The notes beneath the pieces were generated by a model. It worked only from the letters and a program-made list of their open reading frames with translations, did no database searches and was not told the origin of the DNA. The translations under genes were made by a program, and so were the position numbers. A stretch of 45,430 nt of DNA from a virus (lineage: Duplodnaviria; Heunggongvirae; Uroviricota; Caudoviricetes), in the IMG/VR virus record IMGVR_UViG_2920292642_000002, positions 83,431-128,860 of that record. The stretch is one strand, 5' to 3'. Positions 1,170 through 41,205 of this stretch are shown here, piece after piece (the stretch's first letter is position 1; each line of letters opens with the position of its first letter).

Positions 1170-1210
1170 GCAGGCGCGGAGGAGTTCAGTTCCTTGTACT
1201 CCGCGTCTGC
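1170..1210 (+). other. 12-bp leader hairpin
   Basis: GCAGGCGCGGAG (1170-1181) pairs with CTCCGCGTCTGC (1199-1210), with one G-U pair. Confidence 0.6.
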
Positions 1211-1219
1211 ACTCAACCC
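1206..1219 (+). repeat. TCTGCACTCAACCC motif, copy 1
   Basis: Exact 14-mer also present at 2489, 5765 and 41014. Confidence 0.9.
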
Positions 1220-1241
1220 GCTCCCTTGAAGACTACCGCCA

Positions 1242-1305
1242 TGAAGTTTTGACGACTTGAAGTCGTGAAGTTTTGAAGACTTGAGGGCCTGACAACTAGA
1301 GGGCT
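1242..1305 (+). repeat. tandem array of 8 degenerate octamers (TGAAGNNT-like)
   Basis: TGAAGTTT TGACGACT TGAAGTCG TGAAGTTT TGAAGACT TGAGGGCC TGACAACT AGAGGGCT. Confidence 0.8.
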
Positions 1306-1331
1306 CCACAACATGAGGCTGACTGGGGACA

Positions 1332-2108
1332 ATGGCTGTAGGGGCAATCAGGATTTCGGAAGATGTGCTGCGCGTGTTGAGTGCAGCGGAGATCACTGGC
1401 AATGCACTGGCGCTGACCGGCCAGCTTGACCGCAAGCTCTACGAGCAGACCAACAAGGTGCTCGATGCCGCTGGCGGGAAGTGGAACAGGAAGGCCAAGG
1501 CGCATCTCTTCGACGGTGACGCGGCCGAGGCCATCGAGCCGATCATTCTGACTGGCGAGTACACCCGCACCAAGCAGGAGTTCGGCCAGTTCGACAGCCC
1601 GCCCGATGTCGTGCGCCGTGTGATCGAGCTTGCCGATATCCGGCCGGGCATGCTGGTTCTGGAGCCATCGGCCGGCGTCGGCAATCTGGCTCTCGCCGCC
1701 CACCACGAGGGTGGAATCGTCACGGCATGGGAGATCGATCCCAATCGTTTCGACAAGCTGAAGTCGCTCGACATCTGGAGCGAGACCGCCTGTCCCGTAC
1801 TTGTCGACGCCCTCCAGCAGGACCCATATTTTGAATACGCGGAGCGGTTCGACCGGGTCGTCATGAACCCGCCGTTCGCTCGGCAGGACGACATTCGACA
1901 CGTCATACATGCCGCCAATTTCCTGAAAGACGGCGGGAGACTGGTCGCGGTCATGTCCGCTAGCGTCCTGTTCCGCGACAATAAACTCACGACCGATTTC
2001 CGGGCCTTCGTCGAAGCGTGTGACGGAACGATCGAGCGCCTGCCGGAGGACTCCTTCAAGGAAAGCGGCACCTCCGTGAACACCTGCGTCGTGTCCTTCA
2101 ACGTCTGA
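1332..2108 (+). CDS. SAM-dependent amino (m6A/m4C) DNA methyltransferase
   Basis: Motif I-like LEPSAGVG, acidic WEID, and catalytic VVMNPPF. Confidence 0.85.
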   Translation: MAVGAIRISEDVLRVLSAAEITGNALALTGQLDRKLYEQTNKVLDAAGGKWNRKAKAHLFDGDAAEAIEPIILTGEYTRTKQEFGQFDSPPDVVRRVIELADIRPGMLVLEPSAGVGNLALAAHHEGGIVTAWEIDPNRFDKLKSLDIWSETACPVLVDALQQDPYFEYAERFDRVVMNPPFARQDDIRHVIHAANFLKDGGRLVAVMSASVLFRDNKLTTDFRAFVEACDGTIERLPEDSFKESGTSVNTCVVSFNV

Positions 2109-2115
2109 GGTCCCC

Positions 2116-2292
2116 GTGATCTTCGTCAAGCTCAAAAGCACGCTGACCTTGTGGGAGGAGACGGTCCAGCTACCGACTGTCCCACGCGTGGGCGAACGTC
2201 TCAAGCTCGTAGAGGATTCACACTTGAGGACGGTCACCGAGGTCGTGTGGGAGCCGAACGCTTCCCCGCGCGTCACCGTTTTCTATCGCTGA
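2116..2292 (+). CDS. 58-aa hypothetical protein (below the ORF-track cutoff), paralog of the next gene's N-terminus
   Basis: GTG start 5 nt after GAGG; translates as MIFVKLKSTLTLWEETVQLPTVPRVGERLKLVEDSHLRTVTEVVWEPNASPRVTVFYR. Confidence 0.7.
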   Translation: MIFVKLKSTLTLWEETVQLPTVPRVGERLKLVEDSHLRTVTEVVWEPNASPRVTVFYR

Positions 2293-2299
2293 GGTCCCC

Positions 2300-2758
2300 A
2301 TGCTCGTAATCATCGTAGAGCGCTTCCCCGAAAAAGGCGTCGCCAATTTCACGGGCATGAACCTGCCCGCCGTACCACGTGTCGGCGATCTGGTAGCGCT
2401 CAATGAGACCATGAAGATGGTCGAGAATGTGGCGTGGGGCGACGGCCTCGATCCTCAGGTCTATGTCAAGGACCAGCCGGCCGAGCCGTCTGCACTCAAC
2501 CCAGACGCCGCCCAGTTGACCGGTGCCAAGGTCCTCAATCTAAAAATGCCCGGCAACGACGCCGACGCCGAGACGATCAGGGACTACCTGAAAGCTCTGC
2601 TCAAAGCCTTGTGGGCTGAGGGCGAGGGTTTCAGTGGTAAGCGTCCGTTCGGCAATTCCGGCTGGGAGTACGATCTGTATCAAGTGCTCGAAAAGATCGG
2701 GTTCACTGATCGGGCCGTGCAGAACGCCTTCATCTTCGAAGCCATCAAGGCCCTGTGA
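2300..2758 (+). CDS. hypothetical protein, two-domain (PRVGD domain plus FSGKRPFGNSGWE domain)
   Basis: GAGG SD; fills the operon; typical codon usage. Confidence 0.75.
   Translation: MLVIIVERFPEKGVANFTGMNLPAVPRVGDLVALNETMKMVENVAWGDGLDPQVYVKDQPAEPSALNPDAAQLTGAKVLNLKMPGNDADAETIRDYLKALLKALWAEGEGFSGKRPFGNSGWEYDLYQVLEKIGFTDRAVQNAFIFEAIKAL
2489..2502 (+). repeat. TCTGCACTCAACCC motif, copy 2
   Basis: Exact copy inside a CDS, read as S-A-L-N-P. Confidence 0.9.
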
Positions 2759-2765
2759 GGTATCC

Positions 2766-3053
2766 ATGATCGTCGTCACCAAGGACACTGAACTGGAAAA
2801 CGATCTGGTCCTCAAAATGGGCCAGAATCTCGACCCTGCCGTCGTGCAGGCTGCTGGCTCCGTGTCGGCCGCGATCAGCCTGAAGCGCATCGCCGACGTG
2901 CTGGATGAGTTCAGACCGGCGTTGAAGATCGCCAACATGATGGTCAACCAGATGATGGAAGAGGCCATGAAGGAGGCGGCGGATGCCGCGCTGAATCGGA
3001 TGAGTGCAGAGATCACCAAGGGAGGAAAAGGTGAAAGCGTCCAAGCTGATTAA
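2766..3053 (+). CDS. hypothetical protein
   Basis: ATG at 2766 after TGAGGTATCC; helical protein MIVVTKDTELEND... Confidence 0.7.
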   Translation: MIVVTKDTELENDLVLKMGQNLDPAVVQAAGSVSAAISLKRIADVLDEFRPALKIANMMVNQMMEEAMKEAADAALNRMSAEITKGGKGESVQAD

Positions 3054-3210
3054 GCTCTTGGAGGAAGAGATCAAGCGCCACGGTGATCTGGAGATCGTCG
3101 GCGGATACATTTCCGACGATCGCCCGCCGCGTCGGATCGCTCCGGTCACTGACTTCGGCTACGAGCCCAAGCCCGGCGAGAAGGCGTCCGGCTTCTTTCT
3201 CGAAAGCTGA
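3031..3210 (+). CDS. hypothetical protein
   Basis: GTG start after the GGAGG SD; MKASKLIKLLEEEIKRHGDLEI... Confidence 0.65.
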   Translation: MKASKLIKLLEEEIKRHGDLEIVGGYISDDRPPRRIAPVTDFGYEPKPGEKASGFFLES

Positions 3211-3214
3211 GCCC

Positions 3215-3475
3215 ATGCAGAGCGTTCGAGAATGGTTGAAAATCGTCAACGTCTGCTACGGCAGCCTCGACGACTTCCCCGACGCACGAACCGTCCGCAT
3301 CATGCGCGGGCAGGCGCTCAACTACATCGCCACGCAAGATCGCGTCATGGGCGAGATCAAGGACGACATCGGCCGCGCCGAGTATTTCGAGACCTTCGCC
3401 GCCGACATCTCCGAGGCCAAGAACCAGCTTGAGAAGCTGGACGACTGGCTGGCCAAGCGCGGACTGACGCCGTGA
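3215..3475 (+). CDS. hypothetical protein
   Basis: ATG 4 nt after the previous stop; GTGA overlap with the next gene. Confidence 0.65.
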   Translation: MQSVREWLKIVNVCYGSLDDFPDARTVRIMRGQALNYIATQDRVMGEIKDDIGRAEYFETFAADISEAKNQLEKLDDWLAKRGLTP

Positions 3476-3987
3476 GTGACGCCGCTCCATACGCCAAAGG
3501 CGACCGCGTGAAATTCCTTTGCGACGGAAAACTGGCGACCGTCCGGCAATGCTGGAATGCGGTAGGTGGCTGGCGCGTCCTCGCTCAAGTCGATGACGAG
3601 CACCACACCCCGCATAAGGGTATGCGAGATTTCATGGCGACCGGCGTCGAACTCGCGCCGAACGTCACCTGCGACAACCATAGGAATCCTCCCATGAAGA
3701 CCGAACAGATCACCGTAGACCTCGGCAAGGCGCTTCAGCAGTTGCAGTCCGATCCGTCGCTTGCGGACAAGATCACTCAGATCGTCGCGCCGATGATCCC
3801 CGACCTGATGAAGAATGATGCTCTTCTTATCACTCAGCTTCAGACCGAGGTCGCCCAACTACATCAGCGCTTGAAGGAACTGACCGAAGACCGTGATCGC
3901 CTGATCAATAAATGCAATCACCTGACGGAGCAGGTCGAGCGTGACCTTGACCGCGTGCGCTGGGACGCCAACCCGAGGCCGCTGTGA
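3472..3987 (+). CDS. hypothetical protein (beta-barrel-like N-terminus, coiled-coil C-terminus)
   Basis: GTGA overlaps at both ends; heptad pattern in LQTEVAQLHQRLKELTEDRDRL. Confidence 0.7.
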   Translation: MSDAAPYAKGDRVKFLCDGKLATVRQCWNAVGGWRVLAQVDDEHHTPHKGMRDFMATGVELAPNVTCDNHRNPPMKTEQITVDLGKALQQLQSDPSLADKITQIVAPMIPDLMKNDALLITQLQTEVAQLHQRLKELTEDRDRLINKCNHLTEQVERDLDRVRWDANPRPL

Positions 3988-4244
3988 GTAGACTTAAAAC
4001 ACTGCTGAAGGAAGTCGTAGAGCGCATTAGCTTCAAGCTCGCTCTACCCGACTATCCGACGCTCCACAACGTCGAGGAGTGTGTCGGTATCTTCGCACGT
4101 GACTACTCGATGTTCACCGACTTCGTCCACGTGCGTCGAGTCCACTTGAAGCGCTTCAGCATCGTGCGCCGCGAAGAGTTTTTGATGACGCGTCAAGATT
4201 TTCTGACACTTTATGGCAACAGTCGCTGGAGAAAACTGTCGTGA
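3984..4244 (+). CDS. hypothetical protein
   Basis: Coupled by GTGA overlaps on both sides. Confidence 0.6.
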   Translation: MSRLKTLLKEVVERISFKLALPDYPTLHNVEECVGIFARDYSMFTDFVHVRRVHLKRFSIVRREEFLMTRQDFLTLYGNSRWRKLS

Positions 4245-4546
4245 GCACTCATCCAGTTGACCGCGTCCTCGACGGCTGGTTTGGTGAGAGCGTTGAAGAC
4301 GCCGAAGAGGGCCTTCGGCGTCTAAAATTTCTTTACCAGCCGTTGCGCGACATGTTCGACAAGAAGAGACCGGAGCAGCCGGTCAAGTATGAGTTCCGGG
4401 TCGAGATGCGCAGGCTGCCTCTCGATCTTCTTGCCGAGGCCCTGACCAAGGATTCCGCCGCAGGCTGGCAGACCGTCTCCGTCACCACCGATTGGACCGG
4501 CAAGTCTCTCGTGTCCGTCGTCACACAGCAGCGCCGCGCCGGCTGA
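4241..4546 (+). CDS. hypothetical protein
   Basis: GTGA overlap; last gene before the promoter at 4587. Confidence 0.65.
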   Translation: MSTHPVDRVLDGWFGESVEDAEEGLRRLKFLYQPLRDMFDKKRPEQPVKYEFRVEMRRLPLDLLAEALTKDSAAGWQTVSVTTDWTGKSLVSVVTQQRRAG

Positions 4547-4574
4547 CGGGCGTTCCTAACTTTTTGCGCCGTGA

Positions 4575-4615
4575 GTCCAGAAACGCTTGACAGGCAGTTA
4601 AGGCTTTCTTACCGT
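4575..4615 (+). promoter_or_regulatory. sigma70-type promoter overlapped by the hybrid palindrome GTCCAG-N5-CTTGAC
   Basis: GTCCAG(4575-80) AAACG CTTGAC(4586-91); TTGACA-N17-TACCGT. Confidence 0.7.
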
Positions 4616-4636
4616 CAGGCAAATTGTGAGGGTGAA

Positions 4637-4840
4637 ATGTTCGCTTTCCTGACCAGACACCAGTACGGCCTCGCACTCGCCGCAGCCATCGTCGCCTTCT
4701 TCGTATTCGCCACGCCAAGCTCGACGGTGACCGGCGTCCTGCTGTTCCTCCTGCTCTTGGCGGTCGCGATCTTCGCCCTGCTCAAGCGGGCCGGTGGTGA
4801 TGACGACTGGTGGACGCCGGGTGGCCCGAGCCCACTCTGA
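4637..4840 (+). CDS. small two-TM membrane protein
   Basis: Two hydrophobic stretches; GAGGGTG SD before the ATG at 4637. Confidence 0.7.
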   Translation: MFAFLTRHQYGLALAAAIVAFFVFATPSSTVTGVLLFLLLLAVAIFALLKRAGGDDDWWTPGGPSPL

Positions 4841-4854
4841 TTTCCGAGGACCCT

Positions 4855-5682
4855 ATGAGCAAAGAGCCAATGGCTCCAGCCTATCTGGAGCACATCAACC
4901 ACCTCACCCGCACGACCATGTTCATGGAGAACACCCGCGTCATGCTGCGGCGATCTGCCGAGTTGCTGGAGAGGTCGAAGATTGCCCTCCCCGATGACGG
5001 CCAGCTTCGGGCCGAGATCGAGGCGGAGCTTGCCGCCCTGCGCAAGACCGGCATGATCCCGCACCCGGCACCTGACTGGTCGAAGCTTGCTTCTGGTGGA
5101 CCCGTGTCGCCGCCGCTGCGAACGCCTAAAGAGCCGGCCGTTGTCTCGAAGCCAACGGCTGCTGAGATCGTCAGCGTCATGATTTTTCGACTGCGCAGCG
5201 ACAAGCGGATGCCACACATTCCCAGCAACGATGGTTGGGACGATCTCCTGCCGCTGCGCGAGCGTTTTGCGGAAATCCTTGAGGCCGAGAGGAACAAGGC
5301 CGAGCAGGCGGTCATCAAATACACCCTACGGACGTATTTTGTCGGCCGCGTCACGGCTTCGATCACGCCGTGGGAGCGCGACAACTCGTTCTCCCACATC
5401 AGCGCGGGCTCGATCCATGAACTGGTGAGGTGGACCTTCTCCTCGGTTGCCGACTCCACCCAGCCCTATCCGATCGACGGCGGGTTGAAGGAGCAGGTCC
5501 GCGTGCCCGAGGCGGCGCAGTCGGCGTTCGAGACAGTACGGCGCGAACTGGAAGAGAAGGCCAAGCAACATATTGCCGAGGCCCAGCGCCGCGAGATGGA
5601 GCGTCGCGAGACGCTGCCGTTCGATCCGAACGCCAAGGGCGAGCCCTACACCGAGGCTGAGATTCGCGAGATGACTTCGTGA
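4855..5682 (+). CDS. hypothetical protein
   Basis: GAGGA SD before the ATG at 4855; 275 aa. Confidence 0.7.
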   Translation: MSKEPMAPAYLEHINHLTRTTMFMENTRVMLRRSAELLERSKIALPDDGQLRAEIEAELAALRKTGMIPHPAPDWSKLASGGPVSPPLRTPKEPAVVSKPTAAEIVSVMIFRLRSDKRMPHIPSNDGWDDLLPLRERFAEILEAERNKAEQAVIKYTLRTYFVGRVTASITPWERDNSFSHISAGSIHELVRWTFSSVADSTQPYPIDGGLKEQVRVPEAAQSAFETVRRELEEKAKQHIAEAQRREMERRETLPFDPNAKGEPYTEAEIREMTS

Positions 5683-6101
5683 AGCTCTGCACCCACCATC
5701 ACTATGGCTGGCGCTCGCACAGCGCCGGCATGGAGCCCTTCGACGAAGCGGCGCTGATGTCGGCTCTGCACTCAACCCACACTTTCCTCAAGCACTACGA
5801 AGGAAAGTACCGGGCCGAGATCGTGAAGACCCCGCAGTGCAACTTCGACGGACAAGTCATCGTCTACTGGGATAGCGACGAGGTCAAGCAGCTTGTCGGC
5901 CGCTCGTTTCTGAGCAAGGGCGACCACTGGTTCAAGGCCTTCAACTTCAACTTCGTCGACGACTTCGCCTGCCGGTACTGCGGCGGGACCGGCGTCGACC
6001 ATTACAACCCATTAGTCTTCTGCTGGAACTGCGACGGGACCAAGAAACAGGTCCGCACGACTCGGCCGCGAGACTACGAGCCGATCAGGAGGCCAGTGTG
6101 A
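5679..6101 (+). CDS. hypothetical protein with C-terminal CxxCxGxG...CxxCxG zinc-finger-like motif
   Basis: CRYCGGTG...CWNCDGT; GTGA overlaps. Confidence 0.7.
   Translation: MKLCTHHHYGWRSHSAGMEPFDEAALMSALHSTHTFLKHYEGKYRAEIVKTPQCNFDGQVIVYWDSDEVKQLVGRSFLSKGDHWFKAFNFNFVDDFACRYCGGTGVDHYNPLVFCWNCDGTKKQVRTTRPRDYEPIRRPV
5765..5778 (+). repeat. TCTGCACTCAACCC motif, copy 3
   Basis: Exact copy inside a CDS in a different frame (A-L-H-S-T-H). Confidence 0.9.
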
Positions 6102-6448
6102 CCACGTCCTTCGTCAACATCGTATTCGGTCCACCGAAGGTTGAGAACGGCGTTGTCGTCGTACCCTTCCGGATCAACCTCACGGACGACATCGCAGAGG
6201 GTCCGGTCGACGAAGTAATCACCGCGTCCAACGGATTCGCCCTGACGCTCCAGACGATTGCGAAAGGTCGTGACGCCATCCGCGACTGCGTCGAGGAATG
6301 CTTCGAGGAGCGCCGACATGATTGGGGTGCGATCACATTCAACCGCTACCGCGACGCCATGGTCGAGCACCTTACCACACTCGATCTCAGCAGATTTGCG
6401 GCTCCGCAATGGGCCTCGGCCCATCCTCAGCATCCAAGAGTGCAATGA
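6098..6448 (+). CDS. hypothetical protein
   Basis: GGAGG SD; coupled overlaps. Confidence 0.65.
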   Translation: MTTSFVNIVFGPPKVENGVVVVPFRINLTDDIAEGPVDEVITASNGFALTLQTIAKGRDAIRDCVEECFEERRHDWGAITFNRYRDAMVEHLTTLDLSRFAAPQWASAHPQHPRVQ

Positions 6449-6597
6449 TGTACGACGAAGTAGACCTCGACGAAGACGCGCTGCCGATGGCTCCGCCCGA
6501 CATCTGCGGATGTTGCGGCGATCCCCTGCCGCTCGATTGCGAATCTCCTTTTTGCGAGGAGTGTGAAGAAAATCTGGACAAACTCGATGCACATTGA
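6445..6597 (+). CDS. 50-aa acidic zinc-ribbon-like protein
   Basis: MMYDEVDLDEDALPMAPPDICGCCGDPLPLDCESPFCEECEENLDKLDAH; ATGA overlap. Confidence 0.6.
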   Translation: MMYDEVDLDEDALPMAPPDICGCCGDPLPLDCESPFCEECEENLDKLDAH

Positions 6598-6712
6598 TGT
6601 CCTGACCCTCCTCGAAGCGGCCGTCGTGGTGATCAGCCTATCGGCGATCGGCGTCTGCGGAGCCGTGGCGCTTCGCGAGCAGATGCGACGGGTGAATATC
6701 AAATGGACCTGA
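6587..6712 (+). CDS. 41-aa single-TM protein
   Basis: MHIDVLTLLEAAVVVISLSAIGVCGAVALREQMRRVNIKWT, translated by hand; fills the gap with overlaps. Confidence 0.55.
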   Translation: MHIDVLTLLEAAVVVISLSAIGVCGAVALREQMRRVNIKWT

Positions 6713-6834
6713 CGCATTGGGCAGTCTTCCTCGCGGCCGTCGCTTGGGCCGTGTGGGTGCGCCGGCTTTGGTTCTCGAAACCAGCCAAGGATGACCCACC
6801 GCAGTGGTGGATGATCAAGGGGACAATCCGATGA
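6703..6834 (+). CDS. 43-aa single-TM, Trp-rich protein
   Basis: MDLTHWAVFLAAVAWAVWVRRLWFSKPAKDDPPQWWMIKGTIR; ATGA overlap with the next gene. Confidence 0.55.
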   Translation: MDLTHWAVFLAAVAWAVWVRRLWFSKPAKDDPPQWWMIKGTIR

Positions 6835-7043
6835 CGTTCACACTTTCTATCGACTGGTGGCTGCTGCCGCTGGCTGCCTCGGTGGCGGTCTGGATTTGGT
6901 TCTTCGTGGCGACCGCTGGAGAGAACATGAGAGGGTACGGCGGAGACATCGTCGGCCTGATCTGCGGCGGATTGGCCGTCGTCATCACCCTCACGGTCTG
7001 GCTGCTCTACTGCATCTATCTGATGGTGTCCGGCAGCCCGTAA
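6831..7043 (+). CDS. two-TM membrane protein
   Basis: MTFTLSIDWWLLPLAASVAVWIWFF...GLICGGLAVVITLTVWLLYCIYL. Confidence 0.7.
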   Translation: MTFTLSIDWWLLPLAASVAVWIWFFVATAGENMRGYGGDIVGLICGGLAVVITLTVWLLYCIYLMVSGSP

Positions 7044-7049
7044 TCACAG

Positions 7050-19139: not shown

Positions 19140-19146
19140 TCTGGTT

Positions 19147-19163
19147 GTCCAGATTTTCTGGAC
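19147..19163. promoter_or_regulatory. palindrome GTCCAG-N5-CTGGAC after the tail tube gene
   Basis: TGTCCAG ATTTT CTGGACATCC; matches 11551-11572 at 20 of 22 nt. Confidence 0.7.
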
Positions 19164-19176
19164 ATCCAGTACATAA

Positions 19177-19268
19177 AGGAGCCCGACATACTCCTGCGCT
19201 TTTGCGCGCGCGAAACGGGGCCGGACTTTGTCGGGAGGTCCGGCCCCACCCCATCCCGAACCCCGACA
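19177..19268 (+). ncRNA. candidate cis-acting structured RNA (kissing loop/pseudoknot)
   Basis: Hairpin loop CCCGACA (19182-88) is complementary to hairpin loop TGTCGGG (19229-35); a second CCCGACA sits at 19262-68. Confidence 0.5.
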
Positions 19269-23100: not shown

Positions 23101-24878
23101 GTGGCCCGAATGCCGGCATGTCGCTTGCCGAACAGTATGCGTCCTATGGCGCGGGCAAGGCCCAGTCGAATGCCGCGAAGCAGGCGGGCATCACTCGTGC
23201 GCCGCTGCCTGACATTCCGGGCACCAATGTCGCGCCGGCCGGACCGTCCACAAACGATCGTTTCGCGACCGAGCCGGGCTTCGTCAAGCCGATGAAGACG
23301 CTCAACGACGGCGTGCGGGAATTGGATCGCAGCCTCAAGTCCATGCCTGATGGATGGGGACCGGGCGGCATCATCGGCGCGAACACCACGGCGAAGACCA
23401 ACCGTGTCGGCTTTGTTGACCCCGAGCGCTTCGCGCCGGGCGTGAACCCCAACGCAAACCTCGGTCTGCGTGGCGCGATCGATCCTATCACCACGTCGGC
23501 ACTGCCGGCTGGTGGTGGCGTGTCGCCAACCATCAACGGCTTCACCTTCTCGAAGTTCTCGGAGGCGTCGTACCAGCAGATTTCCAACCAACTGATGGAC
23601 CGGTTGAAGCAGGACTTCAACCTGACCGACAATCAGGCTGGTGGCATCGTCGCGAACCTCGCGCACGAGTCCGTAGGCTTCCGCAAGTTGCAGGAAATGA
23701 AGCCGCTGGTTCCGGGCTCGCGTGGTGGTTATGGCATCGCGCAGTGGACCGGTCCGCGTCGTCGCGAGTATGAGGCTTTCGCAGCGCAGGGCGGCTGGAC
23801 GACCGATTCTCCCGAGGCTCAGTACCAGTTCCTCAAGCACGAGTTGATGGGCAAGGAGTCCCGTTCTCTGTCGCACCTGCGTCAGCAGTCCGGCTTGGGC
23901 GAGTCTGTCGTGTCGTTTCAGGACAAGTTCGAGCGGCCGGGCATCCCGCACACGGCAAGCCGTATGACGCACGCCGACCGGATCATGAACGGCTATCAGC
24001 CCGGCACAGGGTTGCAGCCGGGAGTTGACCCGACCGCGACGGCCGGCATCGATCAGATGAAGGCGAAGGTGACTGAGGTTGGACAGGCTGCGCAGCAGGC
24101 CACGCCGGCTATGGACCAGATGAAGTCCAAGCTGAGCGAGACCGGCACGTCGGCGCAGACCGGTGCGTCCCAGACGCAGATGGCCAACCAGATGAAGACC
24201 CAGTCCGAGTTGCAGATGGGCTTGACCGCTCAGCAGACCGGTATTCAGGTCCAGTCGGCGGGCACCATGGCGGCGTCGGCCGGTCCGCAGTTCCAGCAGG
24301 CAGGTACAGCGATCCAGCAGGCCGGTACGCAGGCGCAGATGGGCGCGCAGCAGGCACAGTCCGCAACGCCGGGCCTCGGCCAGTTCGGTCAGGGCATCTC
24401 GCAGCTTCTCGGCCCGCTGTCGTCGGTCATCCCCGGCCTCGGCCAGTTTGGCAGCATGATCTTGCAGCTTCTCCAGCAGTTGATGACTGGTGGTATGGGC
24501 GGCATGGGTGCTGGCCTCTTCTCCGAGGGTGGATACTCCGACTCGCCGGTCACTCGCGCCCGCGTCAGCGCGGCTCCGTTCATGGGTGCTCCGCATTACT
24601 CCGAGGGCACGCCGAACACGAGTGGTGGCATGCCAGCGATCCTGCACGACAATGAGGCGGTGATCCCTCTGACCCGTGGCCGCAAGGTCCCCGTCGAGAT
24701 GAACGAAGGCGATTCTTCGCGAGCCGGTCGTCAAGATTATCTTGACAGAAGTGGTCCACCGAATCTAACGTTCCACCTGCACGGTGTGAAGGACGCCGAC
24801 AGCTTCAAGAGATCGAAGAGCCAGATCGGCAACGCCATGACGACGGTGCAGCAGCGCTCGCGTATCCGCGACGGATAG
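20127..24878 (+). CDS. tape measure protein with phage tail lysozyme domain
   Basis: 1583 aa, Ala/Gly-rich. Tape-measure core (LEQMFSKGTIQMEELRVQLGDHIPG); lysozyme-like GIVANLAHES...GYGIAQWTGPRR...KFERPG (about 23620-23995); C-terminal GEVPAILH-like EAVIPL. Confidence 0.93.
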   Translation: MSDNYNIKIGVDSRSGARGVKQFSSALGEALRTLREFDKRSRSAFDGLKKLASVNIPDIAKKTKAVQKAIETLNRVQINRRMINDLQRLQNALAGFRFNAKAISKVPEALRGLSNLKIDTSFVSTLNQIKAALKGFRGPPKALAQWAGAFTPFAKVKIDSTLAPRLTALKAALKGFPGLPKGLVNLPTFLRGISRNRIPPSVAQGIASLKTALAGFAGPSAAATRNLSALVAALARVSPGHLAQVAAALARLNGLNINVRGLGSMNNAAQRGAGIWTNMGNSIRNTTNAFRGLNNQISLTHHASTLLATALGSVSLGTFVNSVYEAGSALINLKRTMGAIAGTPTEVNDHLSFLKDLTNELPVSLDAVARSYGKFAVAARLSGTSVADTQKVYKGFATALSAMGVSADNQKYAFLALEQMFSKGTIQMEELRVQLGDHIPGVVPMLAEALDVSTSKLLKMIEAGEVGSDALIKLAEVMQSRFGPAVAAAMNTSAAQITSLQNAWTEFKRILFDSGFNAGLGAMARQFAEILRSDDFKKFAADLGRAMGEAFKLIGALGKVLADNRDKVITFAKALAGVMVAYSIVGVLRLLVAPLSVVGGLFSFAATAVRLFGGALALLAGGKAVAAVANIAKSIGVLTGKVMAAVAAFGLLAILSNEILGDGKLAASFGNMLDAFGKRVGKMIGEMTGGVTEMFDLSGVDGFSEYMKEADEYAKKIQDANQINAESIEKNAERYAKLEEQKKRALTTEQQKLWDEINAIGKANEEYQKQLLLIDEIAKKRGFDPKSAEVDRWRKMLAENTLDDRNPAGAMARDYRQELAMMKAKTAEQKALASAQEDYNELLKKGQDVGKEGLEALRQYHEGIARMNGEIGNGVERWAASVGDFNDQVQEAIKDGISSLSDEITNFVTGAEADFASLGRSILKTFVKISLDSMLKDIAGWMGMDGEKKGASMAEKAMEKLAGIGENITTAMTNVYTNGLTINGEPVTGAGGGPNAGMSLAEQYASYGAGKAQSNAAKQAGITRAPLPDIPGTNVAPAGPSTNDRFATEPGFVKPMKTLNDGVRELDRSLKSMPDGWGPGGIIGANTTAKTNRVGFVDPERFAPGVNPNANLGLRGAIDPITTSALPAGGGVSPTINGFTFSKFSEASYQQISNQLMDRLKQDFNLTDNQAGGIVANLAHESVGFRKLQEMKPLVPGSRGGYGIAQWTGPRRREYEAFAAQGGWTTDSPEAQYQFLKHELMGKESRSLSHLRQQSGLGESVVSFQDKFERPGIPHTASRMTHADRIMNGYQPGTGLQPGVDPTATAGIDQMKAKVTEVGQAAQQATPAMDQMKSKLSETGTSAQTGASQTQMANQMKTQSELQMGLTAQQTGIQVQSAGTMAASAGPQFQQAGTAIQQAGTQAQMGAQQAQSATPGLGQFGQGISQLLGPLSSVIPGLGQFGSMILQLLQQLMTGGMGGMGAGLFSEGGYSDSPVTRARVSAAPFMGAPHYSEGTPNTSGGMPAILHDNEAVIPLTRGRKVPVEMNEGDSSRAGRQDYLDRSGPPNLTFHLHGVKDADSFKRSKSQIGNAMTTVQQRSRIRDG
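24730..24771 (+). promoter_or_regulatory. internal palindrome plus promoter inside the 3' end of the TMP gene
   Basis: GTCAAG ATTAT CTTGAC; TTGACA-N18-TAACGT, about 110 nt upstream of the distal tail gene. Confidence 0.65.
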
Positions 24879-35275: not shown

Positions 35276-35568
35276 TGGAAAACGACCCTAAGGACATCGT
35301 GAATCGCACCCGGCGAGCCCTATTCGTGTTCATCACGGTCGCATTCTGCCTGACCGTGGTGACGGTTATGGGCTTCAATCCGGAACTGACTGGCAAGGTC
35401 AGCGAGGTCGTCGCGGACGGCCTGCTCTCGCTCGCAATGTTCCTGTCGATCTCCTACGTCGCCGGCTCGACAATCGATTACTCGGGCGTACTCGCCCGCT
35501 TCGCCCAGCCACGCAGAATGGCGCTTCCCACTTCTGAACCGGAAGAGTTCAAGGGAGGTGTGGGCTGA
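35275..35568 (+). CDS. putative holin (2 TM)
   Basis: TGATG-coupled to the endolysin; two hydrophobic helices; charged termini. Confidence 0.65.
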   Translation: MENDPKDIVNRTRRALFVFITVAFCLTVVTVMGFNPELTGKVSEVVADGLLSLAMFLSISYVAGSTIDYSGVLARFAQPRRMALPTSEPEEFKGGVG

Positions 35569-37760
35569 TGGTCTCGTTTATGAACCCGATCGGCATTTCC
35601 CCGGTCTCGATCGCCCTTCCCAATCGCAGGAACTCGTCGGCCCCGCCGATCGTCATCGAGCCCACTGCTCCGATCAACACAGGCAAGCCGATGATCTCCG
35701 GCGAGCCACGCGAAGGCGTCACCCTCGTGGCGACGCGCGGCGTGTGGAGCACTGGAGGCGTAGGTATTTCGAGTTACGAGTATCAGTGGTTGCGCGAGGG
35801 AGAGCCGATCCAAGACGCAACCAGTGAGACCTACACACTCACAGCCGACGACAATTACAACGCACTCTCCGTCGAAGTAATCGCTCGAAATGCCCTCGGC
35901 TTGGGCATCGCCGAGAGCGATCCAACAGGCCGTGTAGCGCCGGCTCCGCATGCGCCAGTCAATACTGAACTGCCCACGATCACAGGTATCGCTCGATCTC
36001 AGGAAGTGCTTGCGGCGAACTCCAACGGTCAGTGGACAGGTAACGGAGACGAGCTACTGGATTTCAATTACCAGTGGCTCACCGATGGCGTCGCTATGCC
36101 GGGCAAAACCGGAACCACGATTCTCCTCACCGACAACGAGGTCGGAAAGCGTATCAGCCTGCGCGTCACCGCAATCAACTCGGTCGGCGCTACAGTCGTG
36201 GAAAGTCTCCAGACTGCGGCCGTGATCGCAGCGCAGTTCCAGCCAGCCATCGTAAGCCGACCGACGATCACAGGCGTCGCGCGCTCCTCCTACACGCTGA
36301 CCGTATCGACCGGTACATGGAATAATGGTGGGTCTCCGATCCACACCTACACCTATCAGTGGTTCGCTGACGACGTAGCGATCGCTGGGGCGACCACCAA
36401 CACGTTCACGATCACGGACGCTGAGCTTGGAAAGAGAATCCGAGCCGAAGTGACGGCAATCAACGCGGTCGGCAGCATCACGGCTACAACGGTGCCAACA
36501 GCGGTTGTCGCTGAAGCCGTCTTGCCTCCGTCTGTCATCACGGCTCCGAGGATCACCGGCACCGCGCGTCAGTACGAGACGCTGACCGTTTCTGATGGCG
36601 AGTGGAACGCGAACGATGGGACGATCTCCGGATACACTTACGAGTGGAAGCGCTCGGGAGTGGTGATCCCCGGTGAGACCGGCAACACCTACACCCTCAC
36701 GGCGGACGATGTTGGCAAACGCATTCAGGCCTTCGTGACGGCCACGAACGAAGCGGGCTCGACGACGCGTGCAACGTCACAGACATCGACTGTTACGCTG
36801 CCTCTGAAGCCCGTCGCCATTACCAAGCCCGTCGTCTCGGGAACGGTGGCCGTGGGCGAAGTCCTTACCACCACGGATGGTGTGTGGAACGACAACGGCA
36901 ACCCAATTACGGCTATCATCTATCAGTGGCGTGCCGGTAGTACGAACATCGCCGGAGCGACCAACAACACATACACGGTTCAGTCTTCGGACATTGGTAA
37001 GCGCCTCAGCGCCACTGTCACAGCGATCAACGAAGGTGGAGGGACTTCCTCCATAACGGATCAGACGATCATCGTCCCCGTGCCTCCGGAAGCGCCAACG
37101 GTCATCACCAATCCCGTCATCACCGGACTGGCTAAGGGTGGGGTACTGTTGACGGCTTCCACCGGCACGTGGAATGTAAATGGCTCCCCGATCACGGAAT
37201 ACCTCTTCCAGTGGTACGCGGGCGGTCTGGAGATCGCAGGGGCTACGGCGGCAAACTTCACACCAGACGACAACCACGCCGGATCGGTCATCACAGTCGG
37301 CGTCCGGGCGATCAATGCCTTGGGAACTTCCGAGGAAGCGCGCAGCGCCGGCACTGCCCCGGTACGTCCGACCGTTGAACCTCCTACGAACAGGACACTG
37401 CCATTTATCACCCCGACCAACGCGTCTCCGGACAGCCTGCTTGATGCAGATTCTGGAAATTGGGACGGCAATGGTGAAGACCCTGTCTTCTCCTATCAGT
37501 GGTGGAAGGACGGTGTCGAAATCCCCGGTGCGAGCGCGATAACGCATCAGCTTACCGAGGACGACATCGGAGCGTTCTTCCACGTCGTGGTGACGGCAAC
37601 CAACTCGGCAGGCTCCAAGTCGGCAAACTCCAGTCAGATCGGTCCGGTCACGTCGTCGATCTCGTCGAATCTGGTGCTCGACTACCGAGTTTATGATCTC
37701 GCCGGGATGCCCAAGGTGAACGTGTCCCTTCCACTGGATTACGAAATTCTCGCAGTTTGA
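35568..37760 (+). CDS. protein of 7 tandem Ig-like domains
   Basis: Seven ~92-aa repeats P.I.G......L....G.W......Y.YQW...G..I.GAT..TYT....D.G..I...VTA.N..G. Confidence 0.85.
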   Translation: MVSFMNPIGISPVSIALPNRRNSSAPPIVIEPTAPINTGKPMISGEPREGVTLVATRGVWSTGGVGISSYEYQWLREGEPIQDATSETYTLTADDNYNALSVEVIARNALGLGIAESDPTGRVAPAPHAPVNTELPTITGIARSQEVLAANSNGQWTGNGDELLDFNYQWLTDGVAMPGKTGTTILLTDNEVGKRISLRVTAINSVGATVVESLQTAAVIAAQFQPAIVSRPTITGVARSSYTLTVSTGTWNNGGSPIHTYTYQWFADDVAIAGATTNTFTITDAELGKRIRAEVTAINAVGSITATTVPTAVVAEAVLPPSVITAPRITGTARQYETLTVSDGEWNANDGTISGYTYEWKRSGVVIPGETGNTYTLTADDVGKRIQAFVTATNEAGSTTRATSQTSTVTLPLKPVAITKPVVSGTVAVGEVLTTTDGVWNDNGNPITAIIYQWRAGSTNIAGATNNTYTVQSSDIGKRLSATVTAINEGGGTSSITDQTIIVPVPPEAPTVITNPVITGLAKGGVLLTASTGTWNVNGSPITEYLFQWYAGGLEIAGATAANFTPDDNHAGSVITVGVRAINALGTSEEARSAGTAPVRPTVEPPTNRTLPFITPTNASPDSLLDADSGNWDGNGEDPVFSYQWWKDGVEIPGASAITHQLTEDDIGAFFHVVVTATNSAGSKSANSSQIGPVTSSISSNLVLDYRVYDLAGMPKVNVSLPLDYEILAV

Positions 37761-37771
37761 CAGGTATATCA

Positions 37772-39202
37772 ATGGTAGCAGCAGCAGATGTGAAATGGCG
37801 GTTGTCGGGAGGGGTGGCTAACAACAACCCCCACGCCTCTTTGGGCGGCGAGATGTCCGCCGTCGATGTCACACCCGGAGTCCTGAACAACCTGTTCGAC
37901 CCAGTTTCCTCTCCGGAAGCGCAAAACGGGAAGACGGAGTACCGCTGCGTCTATGTCCTGAACAATCACGCGTCGGACACTTTGATCGACGTTCGCGCGT
38001 ATATCCAAGCGCAGACACCGAATACCGGGACGACGATCGACATCGCACTTGCCCCTACCAGCGGCGCTGCTCCAACAGGAAGCGAAAACAGAACCCCGGC
38101 CGATCCTTCGGCAGGATTGCAGGCGACCGCAGGAAATCTCCAGAGCAATATGGTCTGGTACTGCGTCGATTATGCACCGGAGCTTGGACTGTTCGTCGCC
38201 CTTTCACTCGGTGGCGGTACTTCCTCAGACGTGCGTGCGGCGACTTCTCCAGACGGACTGAACTGGACCGCCGCAGGCGCGACCGCCGACATCACGAAAA
38301 ACTGTAACTGGCGCGACATCTCTTGGTCGCCAAAACTTAAACTGTTTGCTGGTGTTGCGGACTCTGGAACCACCCGTATTGCCATCAGCGCAGACGGCGT
38401 CTCTTGGGGCCAGCGCGTGACCAACTACATAGTCAAGGGCGTCAAATGGTTCCCGGAACTCGATGCCTTCCTCTACGTCCGCCTTGCCACAAACCATTTT
38501 GTCGGCGTTTCGCATGACGGCATGGACTGGTCCGTTGGTGTACAGTCCCCGGTCGCCTTGGGAGACAAAATTGGATTTGCCTATTCTCCGCCCCTCGGCC
38601 GCACCGTGATCTGCGGAGGAACCAGCATCATCCACTCGACCACTCCACTGGAAGGAGGGTGGGTGGCGGGCATCACCGTCCCCAGTGCAAATTTTAGCGG
38701 CGTTGCGTGGTCACCAAAGCTCGGAATGTTCATCGCATCAAATAGTGGGTCGGGAGGCAGCAAACTCTACAAGAGTGTGGACGGGATTAATTGGACACCA
38801 TTGATTACATACGCTTTCCCTCCTGTACTCTACCACGCTAACTGGTCGGAAGGTCTAAGTGCATTTGTCGTCTGCGGGCTGAGCTTTGCTGCTATGTCTT
38901 TCGATGGTGTTGTTTGGACGGAGATCACCGTACCCGCATCCACAGGCTACCAGAGACTTCTTCCGGTCGGCACCAAGACCTATACGGTTGGTAACACAGG
39001 CACTGCCCGCAACTACGTCCTAGAGGCTCCGGAACTGGTTTTCAGTTCCCCGGCAGATGCCGAGAACGGTCTGGAGATCGGTGATCTCGGACCGGGGCAG
39101 CGGCGCGCCGTCTGGGTCCGGCGCACGGTTTCGCCCGGCGCGCCTGCGGTAGCCAACGACCCATTCACCCTCGCAATTCGCGGCTTCCCGCCGCTGGCCT
39201 AA
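37772..39202 (+). CDS. virion-type beta-sandwich protein with inserted BNR/Asp-box propeller
   Basis: N-terminal LSGG.ANN.P.ASLGG...LNNLFD.VS..EA..G..EYRC.Y; five S.DG..W boxes; C-terminal IGDL.PG...AVW.RR.V. Confidence 0.7.
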   Translation: MVAAADVKWRLSGGVANNNPHASLGGEMSAVDVTPGVLNNLFDPVSSPEAQNGKTEYRCVYVLNNHASDTLIDVRAYIQAQTPNTGTTIDIALAPTSGAAPTGSENRTPADPSAGLQATAGNLQSNMVWYCVDYAPELGLFVALSLGGGTSSDVRAATSPDGLNWTAAGATADITKNCNWRDISWSPKLKLFAGVADSGTTRIAISADGVSWGQRVTNYIVKGVKWFPELDAFLYVRLATNHFVGVSHDGMDWSVGVQSPVALGDKIGFAYSPPLGRTVICGGTSIIHSTTPLEGGWVAGITVPSANFSGVAWSPKLGMFIASNSGSGGSKLYKSVDGINWTPLITYAFPPVLYHANWSEGLSAFVVCGLSFAAMSFDGVVWTEITVPASTGYQRLLPVGTKTYTVGNTGTARNYVLEAPELVFSSPADAENGLEIGDLGPGQRRAVWVRRTVSPGAPAVANDPFTLAIRGFPPLA

Positions 39203-39220
39203 TCCAAAGGAGAACCATCC

Positions 39221-39535
39221 ATGGCCTTCAAAACACGTCTTGAGTTCTGGAGACTGTCGACGACCGATGACGGCGTGAAGACCGTCGTCCTCGACGAGCC
39301 GATTGCCGACTCGATCGAAATCGACGCCAACATGGCTGACCCCATCGAGCTACCTGTCCTCGTCAACCGCGAGGCTTATGGCGTGTCGATCTACGGCGTC
39401 GCCGGCAATGCTACCGTGGAGATCACGGAGACGCCGACGAAGAGCCCTCTGCGCGGCCGACTGATCGTCGAAGGGTCGCAGCACTGGATCATCGCCAAGG
39501 GCGGCAAGTCGGTCTTCATCACCGAATACGTCTGA
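39221..39535 (+). CDS. hypothetical protein
   Basis: AAGGAG SD; TGATG-coupled to the spanin gene. Confidence 0.7.
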   Translation: MAFKTRLEFWRLSTTDDGVKTVVLDEPIADSIEIDANMADPIELPVLVNREAYGVSIYGVAGNATVEITETPTKSPLRGRLIVEGSQHWIIAKGGKSVFITEYV

Positions 39536-39909
39536 TGTTCAACCCGCTCAGCCTCTTCTCCACCTTGAAGTCCGGAGTGATCACGGTCGCCGTGGTCGCC
39601 GGACTGACCCTTGTTGGGTCCTTGTGGGTCCAGAAAAACTTGGCAGAGAAGAGGATTGAATCCTTACAGATTGAGAAGGTCAACCTCCAAAACACTGTTA
39701 TCGCTCGTGAGGTCGAGGTCAAGGGCCTGAAGATCGCCATCGAGTCCTTGGAGGATACCTTCCGCAGGATCGACGAACACAGAGGGGTCGAGGAAGAAAT
39801 AAGCAGGGAAATCGAGAATGCGCCAAGTGAAAACGATGGTCCTGTCGCTCCTGTACTGCGTGATGCTATCCGCAGCGTTGAGCGGCTGTACAACCCCAAC
39901 AAAAACTGA
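39535..39909 (+). CDS. inner-membrane spanin (Rz-like)
   Basis: N-terminal TM, coiled coil, C-terminal DGPVAPVLRDAI. Confidence 0.8.
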   Translation: MFNPLSLFSTLKSGVITVAVVAGLTLVGSLWVQKNLAEKRIESLQIEKVNLQNTVIAREVEVKGLKIAIESLEDTFRRIDEHRGVEEEISREIENAPSENDGPVAPVLRDAIRSVERLYNPNKN

Positions 39910-40132
39910 CGTTTTCGTCGCATCTCCGACGATCCCAGATAGTCTGCGCACGTGCAGGAACGCGCCCGGCGCACCGAGGGAGCCCTACACCCAGAAGGAC
40001 GTTGCGCGCTTTATCAATGGGTTGGCCGGAGCCCATCTTGACTGCCGGGAAAAGTTGTCCGGCGTTGTCAGAATCGTCGACCAGACAGAAAAATCATCTA
40101 AAAACGTTCCTAACTCCAATAGAGTTCCCTAA
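39836..40132 (+). CDS. outer-membrane spanin lipoprotein (Rz1-like)
   Basis: Overlaps the Rz 3' end in another frame; lipobox LSG-C; Pro-rich, with two further Cys. Confidence 0.8.
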   Translation: MVLSLLYCVMLSAALSGCTTPTKTDVFVASPTIPDSLRTCRNAPGAPREPYTQKDVARFINGLAGAHLDCREKLSGVVRIVDQTEKSSKNVPNSNRVP

Positions 40133-40218
40133 GCCGAAAGAGGTACACTTGATTCGGTTTCGCTTAAACGAATCCTTACCTTGTCAAGAGCCAAAGGATT
40201 CTTTTCTGACAGAAAGCC

Positions 40219-40247
40219 TTGACAGCCTCGTAAAGCCGTTCTAACTG
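40219..40247 (+). promoter_or_regulatory. sigma70-type promoter for the repressor-like gene
   Basis: TTGACA-N17-TAACTG in AT-rich intergenic DNA. Confidence 0.65.
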
Positions 40248-40292
40248 TTTCGCATCGCACAAAAGTGCGGGGACAACGGGACAGGGAAACCA

Positions 40293-40955
40293 ATGGAAGG
40301 TGCTGTAAAAAGAACTACAAAACCAACTCTGGACAGAGAAGGGTGCATCGCGTTTGGCAGACGACTAAGTCATGCCAGAGAAGCAGCGGCACTCACTCAA
40401 GCAGAATTGGCGCGCCGTCTCGGGTTTTCTCGATCTGCAATTGGTCAGTGGGAACTCGGGAACACCTACCCATCCATCGACAACGTCAAAAGCCTTGCGG
40501 ATGCTGTCCGCTCGACTCCGGAATTTCTTCTCTTCGGCGTCGAGAATAGCAATCCCGAAAGAATGGCGAATGCTATCCCTTTGATCGACAAGATCGACGG
40601 CAAGGAGCGTGTCGTCACGTCTATCGTCCTGCCGAGGGACGCTCTCCAGCGCATCGGTTTGACCGGCGAGGAGAAGCTGCGGGCCGTCACCGTATTCTAC
40701 GACGACGAGATCGAAGGCATGAAGGCCGGCGACATCGTCGTGGTCAATACGGAAGACAAGGACATCCGAGGCAAGGGGACCTTCGTTCTGGACAACCACG
40801 ACCGCACGGCCATTGGTGAAGTCCAAGCGGTGCCGGGCTCCCATGACAAGATGATGCTCGTCAAGATCGGCGGCAACGACTTCGAGGTGCCGGTCGGCAG
40901 ACTGCCGATCGTCGGCCGTGTGGTCAGTAGCGTACTCGTCGGCCGGCCACACTAA
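40293..40955 (+). CDS. XRE/CI-like HTH regulator with degenerate S24-like C-terminal domain
   Basis: RLSHAREAAALTQAELARRLGFSRSAIGQWELGNTYPS...LADAV....FLLFG; C-terminal GDIVVV...IVGRVV. Confidence 0.85.
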   Translation: MEGAVKRTTKPTLDREGCIAFGRRLSHAREAAALTQAELARRLGFSRSAIGQWELGNTYPSIDNVKSLADAVRSTPEFLLFGVENSNPERMANAIPLIDKIDGKERVVTSIVLPRDALQRIGLTGEEKLRAVTVFYDDEIEGMKAGDIVVVNTEDKDIRGKGTFVLDNHDRTAIGEVQAVPGSHDKMMLVKIGGNDFEVPVGRLPIVGRVVSSVLVGRPH

Positions 40956-40956
40956 G

Positions 40957-41205
40957 TCAGGACTTGGGTACATCGATTACGCTCTGGCCGGGGTCACTCC
41001 CGGCCTTTTCGTTTCTGCACTCAACCCGCCATTCCCCCTCCTCAAGGTCGATTTCCTTGCGGGCTGCTTGGATGACAGGGTCAGACGAATCCTTGACGAC
41101 AAGGCCGCAGTACCACTTGATGGGAAGCGGACCGGTCGTCTCTTTGTCGGGGATGAGTTCAGAGGTAACCGTGCCGGCGTCCAGATCGATCGTGGTCAGT
41201 CTCAT
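40957..41205 (-). CDS. hypothetical protein
   Basis: TGATG overlap at 41203-41207 gives the start at 41205. Confidence 0.5.
   Translation of the reverse strand: MRLTTIDLDAGTVTSELIPDKETTGPLPIKWYCGLVVKDSSDPVIQAARKEIDLEEGEWRVECRNEKAGSDPGQSVIDVPKS
40986..41013 (+). terminator. Rho-independent terminator after the repressor-like gene
   Basis: GGCCGGGG-TCAC-TCCCGGCC followed by TTTTCGTT. Confidence 0.75.
41014..41027 (+). repeat. TCTGCACTCAACCC motif, copy 4
   Basis: Exact copy, antisense to the local minus-strand ORF, directly after the terminator. Confidence 0.9.

Follow-up and report, generated by a model that had tools for sequence, protein, structure and literature searches.

A 14-base DNA word under selection in a large prophage is associated with a primase-helicase family and its origins

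What reads a short DNA word that recurs at scattered places in a phage genome? The question is raised by a stretch of 45,430 nt (the window) from a virus of the class Caudoviricetes (IMG/VR record IMGVR_UViG_2920292642_000002, positions 83,431 to 128,860), in which the 14-base word TCTGCACTCAACCC recurs. The window (G000:C34:181040-226469) was found to be the right third of a ~128-kb prophage and holds the structural module with both its flanks. The prophage lies at C34:98.2-227 kb (about -82800 to 46000 in window coordinates), adjoins tRNA-Arg and carries an integrase, ribonucleotide reductase, a family-A DNA polymerase, an SNF2 helicase, an array of 26 tRNA genes and a large terminase (TerL) that bears an intein. 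Collinearity with Mesorhizobium phage Cp1R7A-A1 extends through the entire prophage, and 118 proteins match at 40-92% identity. A first-pass annotation of the window had proposed a binding, nicking or priming site acting on early-entering or accessory DNA. The analysis below supports a binding or priming site at the DNA level, through the selection on the word and its tie to an element-encoded primase-helicase, g50, and the origins of that family. Comparative sequence evidence suggests that the word is most likely a recognition or priming site of the element's own g50-type primase-helicase, a reading in which we place middling confidence.

A scan of the window confirmed four exact copies, all on the + strand, at positions 1206, 2489, 5765 and 41014. 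When up to two mismatches were allowed, eight matches were found against 0.32 expected; none of 100 dinucleotide-preserving shuffles reached eight, and none of 100 shuffles reached four exact copies. The core of the word is TCTGNNCTCAACC and its usual full form is TCTGCACTCAACCC, and the 10-base core was also found at 43152 (+), 3001 (-) and 42950 (-), as first reported. The word is 13-14 nt long, is not self-complementary and has no hairpin. The copies and the features directly concerned with them are as follows.

1206-1219, + strand: exact copy, intergenic, between a DUF3846 gene (661-1008, - strand) and an orphan N6-adenine methyltransferase gene (1365-2108, + strand)
1374-1387, - strand: variant with two mismatches, GCTGCACTCAACAC, at the start of the methyltransferase gene
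2489-2502, + strand: exact copy within the open reading frame 2300-2758, on its sense strand, in the frame S-A-L-N-P
2997-3010, - strand: variant with two mismatches, TCTGCACTCATCCG, close to the 3' end of a small open reading frame on the + strand
5765-5778, + strand: exact copy within the open reading frame 5679-6101, on its sense strand, in another frame (A-L-H-S-T-H)
40293-40955, + strand: gene for an XRE-type helix-turn-helix regulator of 220 aa, ortholog of Cp1R7A-A1 gene 198; an unproven, alternative candidate reader of the word
40986-41005, + strand: terminator-like hairpin of eight pairs, seven of them G-C, with a T-tail that runs into the next copy
41014-41027, + strand: exact copy, intergenic, 58 nt past the stop codon of the XRE regulator gene
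41150-41163, - strand: variant with two mismatches, TCTGAACTCATCCC
43534-43547, - strand: variant with two mismatches, TCTGCTCTCAACCG, intergenic, in the right arm

The two reading frames are those given in the first-pass annotation, and its variant near 43535-43547 is the last of the matches listed, now with two mismatches counted over the 14-mer. Its placement of copy 41014 antisense to a minus-strand open reading frame had to be dropped, since there is no credible gene there; the copy is intergenic because it starts in the T-tail of the terminator-like hairpin after the XRE regulator gene.

The distribution over the host genome tied the word to the prophage. The 6.1-Mb assembly holds 18 exact copies, all in C34:99.6-222 kb, with 8 on the + strand and 10 on the - strand. 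The single orientation is true of the window and not of the prophage. With up to two mismatches there were 40 copies in C34:98.8-224.6 kb compared to 19 in the other 5.98 Mb, a density ratio of ~100-fold, and no other 14-mer was as frequent as TCTGCACTCAACCC in the prophage or in Cp1R7A-A1. A host-wide signal (Chi, FtsK-orienting polar sequences (KOPS), an uptake sequence or the regulon of a host transcription factor) was rejected because the exact copies are confined to the prophage, with none elsewhere in the 6.1 Mb, and because counts elsewhere are at control level: an exact copy was present in only 3 of 400 host-family genomes, and one- and two-mismatch counts elsewhere equalled those of a reversed-word control. 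Exact-word scans of viral contigs and genome contigs gave mostly single matches at chance level, and the word is not mentioned in any paper searched.

A comparison with Cp1R7A-A1 showed that the sequence of the word is maintained by selection. That phage carries 9 exact copies, 29 with up to one mismatch and 39 with up to two, and no copy of the reversed word. The two phages are barely alignable as DNA. At 10 orthologous positions, 136 of the 140 bases of the word were identical (97%), against 51% in the flanks, which were compared without gaps over 45 nt per side; in the four intergenic pairs the flanks were 22-40% identical. Three of these positions fall within RtcB or at its end and one within thymidylate synthase; another follows TerL, two are gene junctions and one comes after the XRE regulator, where copy 41014 has its counterpart at Cp1R7A-A1 position 95774 with one mismatch and only 37% identity in the flanks. 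The word is under strong purifying selection as DNA, independent of coding, and the earlier exclusion of a protein-level repeat holds. Alignment of 27 copies found no position conserved at ≥60% within 30 nt on either side; long flanking homology, which the first-pass annotation had named as the mark of duplication scars, is missing, and the copies are not such scars because their flanks share no homology.

The same annotation had pointed to close relatives as a further comparison, and the word was present in all four Cp1R7A-A1-like phages examined. Two of these, the distant metagenome phages L302 and L304, retain exact copies, including those at the RtcB positions. In both, a + copy followed by a - copy lies within the first 570 nt of the g50 gene (L302 10309/10566, L304 10174/10527), and the g50 gene of the prophage has none. 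The IMG/VR relative G402 has copies in the counterpart of the left arm of the window and none after TerL. Directly downstream of copy 1206, at window positions 1242-1289, are short tandem repeats of the type TGAAGT(C/T), and G402 has a counterpart of this copy with a similar run of repeats downstream. The exact word was absent from phiCbK and from Microcystis phage Mwe-JY26 (L268). The latter has a related word, TTGGACTC, in seven copies that are not dispersed; six are in the gap preceding the terminase operon, around an AT-rich stretch, and the g50 homolog of this phage lies directly before that gap.

The word is placed mainly between genes. Only 4 of the 18 exact copies are fully intragenic, where 79% would be expected (p about 4e-7). 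In reverse complement the word is GGGT-TGA-GTGCAG-A; its TGA is the real stop codon of the upstream gene in 7 of the 18, when the background rate for TGA triplets is 3.3% (p about 1e-6). At such junctions the ATG of the next gene overlaps or abuts the end of the word, and the register GGGT-TGA-GTGCAG-ATG recurs in the prophage and in Cp1R7A-A1. The gene calls of the prophage were our own, and the junctions of Cp1R7A-A1 were checked in its independent GenBank annotation, where the same stop/start register was found at ~7 junctions. Homology between the two phages breaks at word edges after RtcB and after g41, among the few junctions examined, and unrelated small genes lie between conserved copies.

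These junctions would be expected if the word were a module-boundary sequence, a portable stop-spacer-start junction that gives short homology for cassette swaps and has no dedicated protein reader. The copies in integrative islands described below, which bracket recombinase genes and the replication module, would also fit. However, many copies lie off junctions, in RtcB, in thymidylate synthase, in the 5' region of g50, in long intergenic gaps and in origin-side blocks of 4-8, and all 13-14 bases are preserved whichever way the word points, more than a translational junction would need. As the polarity around a cluster of copies, set out below, would also be left unexplained, we regard such a function as improbable. 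The word shares with the start-associated sequences of Cluster K mycobacteriophages and the PeSL (early promoter plus stem-loop) cassettes of T4-type phages a position flush with start codons and at the borders of swappable small genes, and the homology breakpoints at word edges resemble those of PeSL cassettes. Such elements are without exception oriented like the gene, and they include either a ribosome-binding site or a promoter together with a stem-loop. In contrast, only about one third of the word copies are flush with a start codon, the rest being intergenic, internal or in the opposite orientation; the word has no conserved flank, and no sigma-70-like promoters adjoin the copies in the window. 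A resemblance to sigma-54 or extracytoplasmic function (ECF) promoter elements, compared by eye only, was unconvincing.

Within the prophage the word keeps to a defined territory and has a polarity. The structural span (34 kb, 26% of the prophage) contains 0 of the 40 copies (p about 5e-6), and the word is also absent from the 15-kb early array. CtrA-type palindromes and an early-promoter leader are confined to 163-182 kb, a late palindrome marks the structural module, and the territory of the word is complementary to those of these two other word classes. The CtrA sites, the early-promoter leader and the late palindrome were rejected as forms of the same signal, being separate words with separate territories. 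The copies do lie in the accessory arms of the window, as had been described, but these arms form the borders of the non-structural part, two thirds of the 128-kb prophage, and 'early-entering or accessory DNA' was too narrow a term for a territory from which only the CtrA-controlled early array and the structural module are excluded. The late palindrome, TGTC(A/C)AG-N5-CT(T/G)GACA, was seen at window positions 8496-8516, 11546-11572, 19143-19181 and 24730-24750. It precedes the genes for portal and capsid and follows those for tail tube and tape measure, with a further occurrence next to the word cluster (C34:161575-161600).

This cluster consists of six copies in both orientations within a 760-bp divergent gap (C34:160.88-161.63 kb) upstream of the operon for RuvC, the small terminase TerS and TerL. 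It adjoins a patch of 35-38% GC, the word is the only repeated word there, and Cp1R7A-A1 has the same cluster in the same gap. The cluster is the likely origin or control region. To its left (130-160.9 kb), the - strand carries 10 of 11 copies with up to one mismatch, though the region is transcribed both ways; to the right (161.6-227 kb), 5 of 5 are on the + strand. Orientation thus follows position relative to the cluster, and the copies point away from it on both arms. The one orientation seen in the window is the right-arm half of this polarity. Sense and antisense copies are about equal in number, so orientation is not tied to transcription.

The same counts bear on the analogy with the programmed single-strand nick sites in virion DNA of T5- and phiKMV-like phages. 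An asymmetric, phage-specific word whose exact copies in the window are all on one strand had suggested it, but the one-strand rule of those sites fails over the prophage as a whole. Since inverted blocks of copies also adjoin the island origins and no nickase candidate was found, we consider nick sites extremely unlikely.

The protein most closely associated with the word is g50, which is encoded outside the window (1249 aa, C34:125923-129672). For the association test, loci were picked by protein similarity alone, from the host family and from public assemblies. The word lies beside the g50-family gene at 12-13 of 15 loci, with proteins of 32-68% identity. In the islands of Aquibium, G388, G056, L300, L301, L307, L309 and L311, and weakly in G018, the word or a variant with a different central dinucleotide is found beside the gene. 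It was absent from L310, which has another branch of the helicase, and from G128, which is without the g50-type N-terminal half. The reversed word gave no match at the four loci where this control was run (L307, L309, L310 and L311). In an all-against-all BLAST of open reading frames, the g50 family was the only protein common to the phages and to the islands that carry the word. Protein identity falls to 32% with no change in the word, as would be expected of a site read by a conserved enzyme domain and not by an immunity repressor. No segment of g50 tracks the word, and the C-terminal tail is 22-30% identical between two phages with an identical word. A related-locus search with g50 found none.

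Other candidate readers were tried and rejected. The Ros/MucR regulator encoded near the cluster of Cp1R7A-A1 has no counterpart near the cluster of the prophage. The gene divergent from the cluster, g104, belongs to no family and has no relative of solved structure, and its Atlas model is poor. The small serine recombinases beside island copies are unrelated between G056 and Aquibium/G388, and are absent from the phages. The gene after copy 1206 encodes an N6-adenine methyltransferase, but an asymmetric 14-base methylation target is implausible and Cp1R7A-A1 has no ortholog; this orphan enzyme of 247 aa (window 1365-2108, + strand) is N6_Mtase/Eco57I-like.

Profile, alignment and model evidence together identify g50. 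Alone it gave no Pfam match. PHROG primase families match it, and its Atlas neighbours carry RepB_primase, DUF5906 or PriCT; DUF927 is found in relatives, and a profile of the family reaches the SCCmec Cch helicase, both of these matches belonging to the C-terminal half. When the N-terminal half was used for a deep search, 1061 representatives were collected, and an alignment of 40 homologs showed invariant DxD, YTTHSH and Asp motifs together with an invariant Cys/His cluster. An AlphaFold (AF2) model of g50 had a predicted local distance difference test (pLDDT) score of 86. In a wide structural search, 7 of the first 8 matches were archaeo-eukaryotic primases (AEP), with S-2L PrimPol at Z 8.2 (root-mean-square deviation 3.7, 146 aligned), and the N-terminal half matched RepB' with initiator DNA at Z 6.4-6.5; further matches were Prim-PolC and archaeal and eukaryotic primases. 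The Cys/His (zinc) region matched the start of a T4 primosome chain (Z 4.2). In a Foldseek search against the PDB alone the AEP match was weak. From these family and profile matches, the invariant motifs and the AEP structural matches, we identify g50 as a fusion protein: an AEP (RepB'-like) primase and a zinc module are joined to a helicase of the self-loading kind, like Cch and the Rep protein of Staphylococcus aureus pathogenicity islands (SaPIs).

The islands show where the word stands relative to a replication origin. Recurrent integrative islands of 10-17 kb were found at loci L258/L259 (Aquibium), L292, L293/L297, L300, L301 and L307. They carry a g50-type primase-helicase, a SaPI-type origin, a small serine recombinase, cargo (a Macro-domain protein, an MmeI-like enzyme) and a tyrosine integrase; the cargo of G056 and L307 includes MmeI/Eco57I-like genes. 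The Aquibium pacificus island (~16 kb) has ten copies of the word, eight of them within 340 bp, and the g50 homolog is its only protein in common with the prophage. Directly after the g50-type gene, element-specific repeats split around an AT-rich core were found in G018, G056, G128, G388, Aquibium, L300 and L301, a layout that is that of the SaPI origin (PMC9371898). These iterons are other words, namely ATTTCTGGA, GTCCGCACT, GGTCCGGGAGG, CAGATGGAC and ACGGGGAGAC, and the conserved word lies outside them. G018 has 12 copies of ATTTCTGGA within 350 bp, and the core of G388 has a GC content of 0.17.

The order in L300 is a word facing left, three iterons, the AT-rich core, three inverted iterons and a word facing right, which overlaps the last iteron. 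An outward-facing copy follows the distal iterons in L301, L307, G018, Aquibium and G388, and one is present on the gene side in L300 and G056. When the nearest copy on each side is counted in all islands, 11 of 13 point outward. Island copies also occur in blocks of 2-8 and bracket recombinase genes and the replication module.

The islands also bear on the question of whether the cluster could be a packaging signal, a cos/pac-like array of TerS sites that satellite islands have copied for packaging by a helper. Its position upstream of RuvC-TerS-TerL is kept in the prophage and in Cp1R7A-A1, and Mwe-JY26 has its variant-word cluster there. A single copy directly follows TerL, and another stands at the distal end of the early array, which is the counterpart of a terminal repeat of the phiCbK type (PMC3556154). 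However, at least 30 dispersed copies would harm packaging, and the boundary of the phiCbK repeat is in or just after terL and not upstream of terS (PMC3556154). With no copy after TerL in G402, island copies tied to origins and no packaging genes found in the islands, a packaging function is very improbable.

Two known systems resemble the island arrangement. In the IncQ plasmid RSF1010, iterons and an AT-rich region are accompanied by separate ssiA and ssiB sites on complementary strands for the sequence-specific AEP primase RepB' (PMC8567376). The islands L300, L301, L307, G018, G056, G388 and Aquibium likewise have sites beside iterons and an AT-rich core, inverted on complementary strands, and their primase is element-encoded and AEP-type, with the N-terminal half of g50 matching RepB'; the phage cluster is less regular. 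In contrast to the single ssi sites, the word occurs in blocks in the islands and in 30-40 copies over about 90 kb in the phages, and the g50 primase is fused to a helicase. In the SaPI origin the iterons are recognized by the winged-helix domain of Rep, and the direction of the helicase is 3' to 5'; the self-loading Rep-type helicase, the primase fused to it as in PriRep5, the origin directly 3' of the gene and 6-12 iterons split around an AT-rich centre all have their likeness in the islands (PMC9371898). In the islands the iterons are element-specific, whereas the conserved word is an additional, separate element beside them, and does not hold the position immediately 3' of the rep gene that SaPI and P4 iterons occupy. 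We know of no such second element described for SaPIs; the phage P4 alpha protein with its ori/crr is a comparable module.

We infer from these likenesses that g50 may bind the word and start primers there. The helicase would load at the iterons and unwind outward, and the displaced strand would then expose the word, read 5' to 3'. The attached primase, through its zinc module, would start a primer at the word; at an origin-proximal copy this primer would become the leading strand of the opposite fork, and at distal phage copies it would serve as a lagging-strand or restart primer. In Cp1R7A-A1-like phages, where the word is multiplied to ~30-40 copies over about 90 kb, the dispersed copies may be repeated priming or re-loading sites, or secondary sites of initiator binding that affect expression of the middle-gene half. 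Reading by a g50-type primase-helicase would account for the association with g50, the adjacency to origins, the outward polarity and the constancy of the word. The junction-flush placement could be explained by gene packing, because a tightly packed genome has almost no spacer DNA: a 14-base signal may survive best where its reverse complement doubles as a junction with the stop TGA, six bases and the start ATG. Copies would then become seams for gene exchange as a side effect; the homology breakpoints do coincide with word edges.

Several observations weigh against a replication role. The absence from the structural module and the early array, with a territory complementary to two other word classes, is more what a regulator of a gene class would show than what a replication signal would. 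In both phages the terminase operon is preceded, at 105-260 nt, by three direct copies, and about one third of all copies sit flush with a start or a stop codon, which hints at a role at the level of expression. The copies within the phage cluster mostly face inward, unlike those of the islands, where one copy each in G056 and L309 is also inward-facing. In the two complete phages g50 is 31 kb from the cluster and nothing origin-like follows it. The link between word and g50 is an association that could also be produced by physical linkage, if a g50-origin module travels with flanking copies. Finally, the ssi sites are hairpins of ~40 nt, one each, whereas the word is short and lacks both a hairpin and a conserved flank (PMC8567376). 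Our confidence stays near the middle of the scale because of the missing copies in the structural module and early array, the complementary territory, the three direct copies, the inward-facing cluster copies and the distance of g50.

Much of this would suit the main alternative, an operator or stoperator-like site of a phage-encoded transcription regulator. The cluster would then be a switch region, and the junction copies would block or tune a middle class of DNA-metabolism, tRNA and small genes; the islands could be satellites with the same sites that follow a helper phage, or could share a small regulator too divergent to detect. As in the Cluster A mycobacteriophage stoperators (the sites of L5 gp71), the word is asymmetric, ~13 bp long and dispersed in dozens of copies, many of them in short intergenic spaces or at stop/start overlaps, in a temperate phage with an integrase. 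The enrichment at gene boundaries and the XRE regulator gene followed by a conserved copy add to this, as do the territory and the three copies ahead of the terminase operon. Stoperators have a single orientation relative to transcription, are bound by the immunity repressor and diverge with the immunity group. The word, in contrast, breaks the orientation rule that defines them, and the analogy drawn in the first-pass annotation holds for asymmetry, copy number and gene-boundary placement and fails there. Nor does the word diverge among elements with g50 proteins 32-68% identical, where it is invariant across phages and unrelated islands of several host genera, and an immunity operator would not be expected to behave so. 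No regulator is common to the carriers, the MucR gene at the Cp1R7A-A1 cluster included, and no repressor is linked to the word. The island copies hug the replication origin, and the word avoids the structural module completely, which is a further difference from stoperators. Since it is weakened by the lack of orientation dependence, the invariant word and the lack of a shared regulator, we consider this explanation possible but unlikely.

The two functions could also be combined. DnaA boxes are likewise an asymmetric initiator word, clustered both ways at the origin and scattered over the genome, and at the scattered boxes DnaA acts as a regulator or is titrated. By analogy, the initiator of the present elements could do both jobs, replication and regulation, although it would be an AEP-primase/Rep-helicase and not the AAA+ protein DnaA, and the word is longer, has an outward polarity and is flush with junctions. 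A stricter form of the priming proposal, which we find doubtful, is that the fixed 13-base word is an obligatory start site of the primase-helicase, so that the two outward island copies would launch both leading strands and the polar phage copies would be programmed lagging-strand or restart sites.

Some further features of these elements were recorded. The large terminase gene (C34:163605-166418, ~15 kb upstream of the window) contains an intein with a LAGLIDADG-type endonuclease domain, and the operon ahead of it encodes a RuvC-like resolvase and the small terminase. The prophage integrase is only 32% identical to that of Cp1R7A-A1; the phiCbK/Lacusarx-like group to which these phages belong is regarded in the literature as presumably virulent (PMC9437464). 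The right arm of the window encodes a WYL-domain protein (43867-44487, - strand), and a Hint-domain protein is encoded just past the right end of the prophage (L014:9257-9868, - strand). The 'Microcystis' phage Mwe-JY26 is built like an alphaproteobacterial relative of Cp1R7A-A1, and it has a 29-bp tandem array (61018-61185 and 62102-62318, units with GGAGAGCCTGGAGA and AGACCAGGGGCGCA) near a gene annotated as an immunity repressor.

What is new here is the quantitative selection test, the polarity, the occurrence of the word in integrative islands as well, and its link to an AEP-primase/Rep-helicase family and to the origins of that family. An orientation-independent, stoperator-like network common to phages and islands would, if the regulatory explanation were right, also be unusual. 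If the word is a start or recognition site of the primase-helicase, it would be a sequence marker for the origins of many alphaproteobacterial phages and integrative islands, and would offer a case, open to testing, of a primase that is sequence-specific and works beyond the very small origin of a plasmid, in a family with more than 1000 representatives. It would also explain a lineage-wide 'junction word' with the looks of a stoperator, and would show a replication signal that constrains gene order and becomes a seam for accessory-gene exchange. Were the word in fact an obligatory start site, a 128-kb genome would be replicated according to a fixed code of dispersed sequences, and this code would also shape where its genes can be joined.

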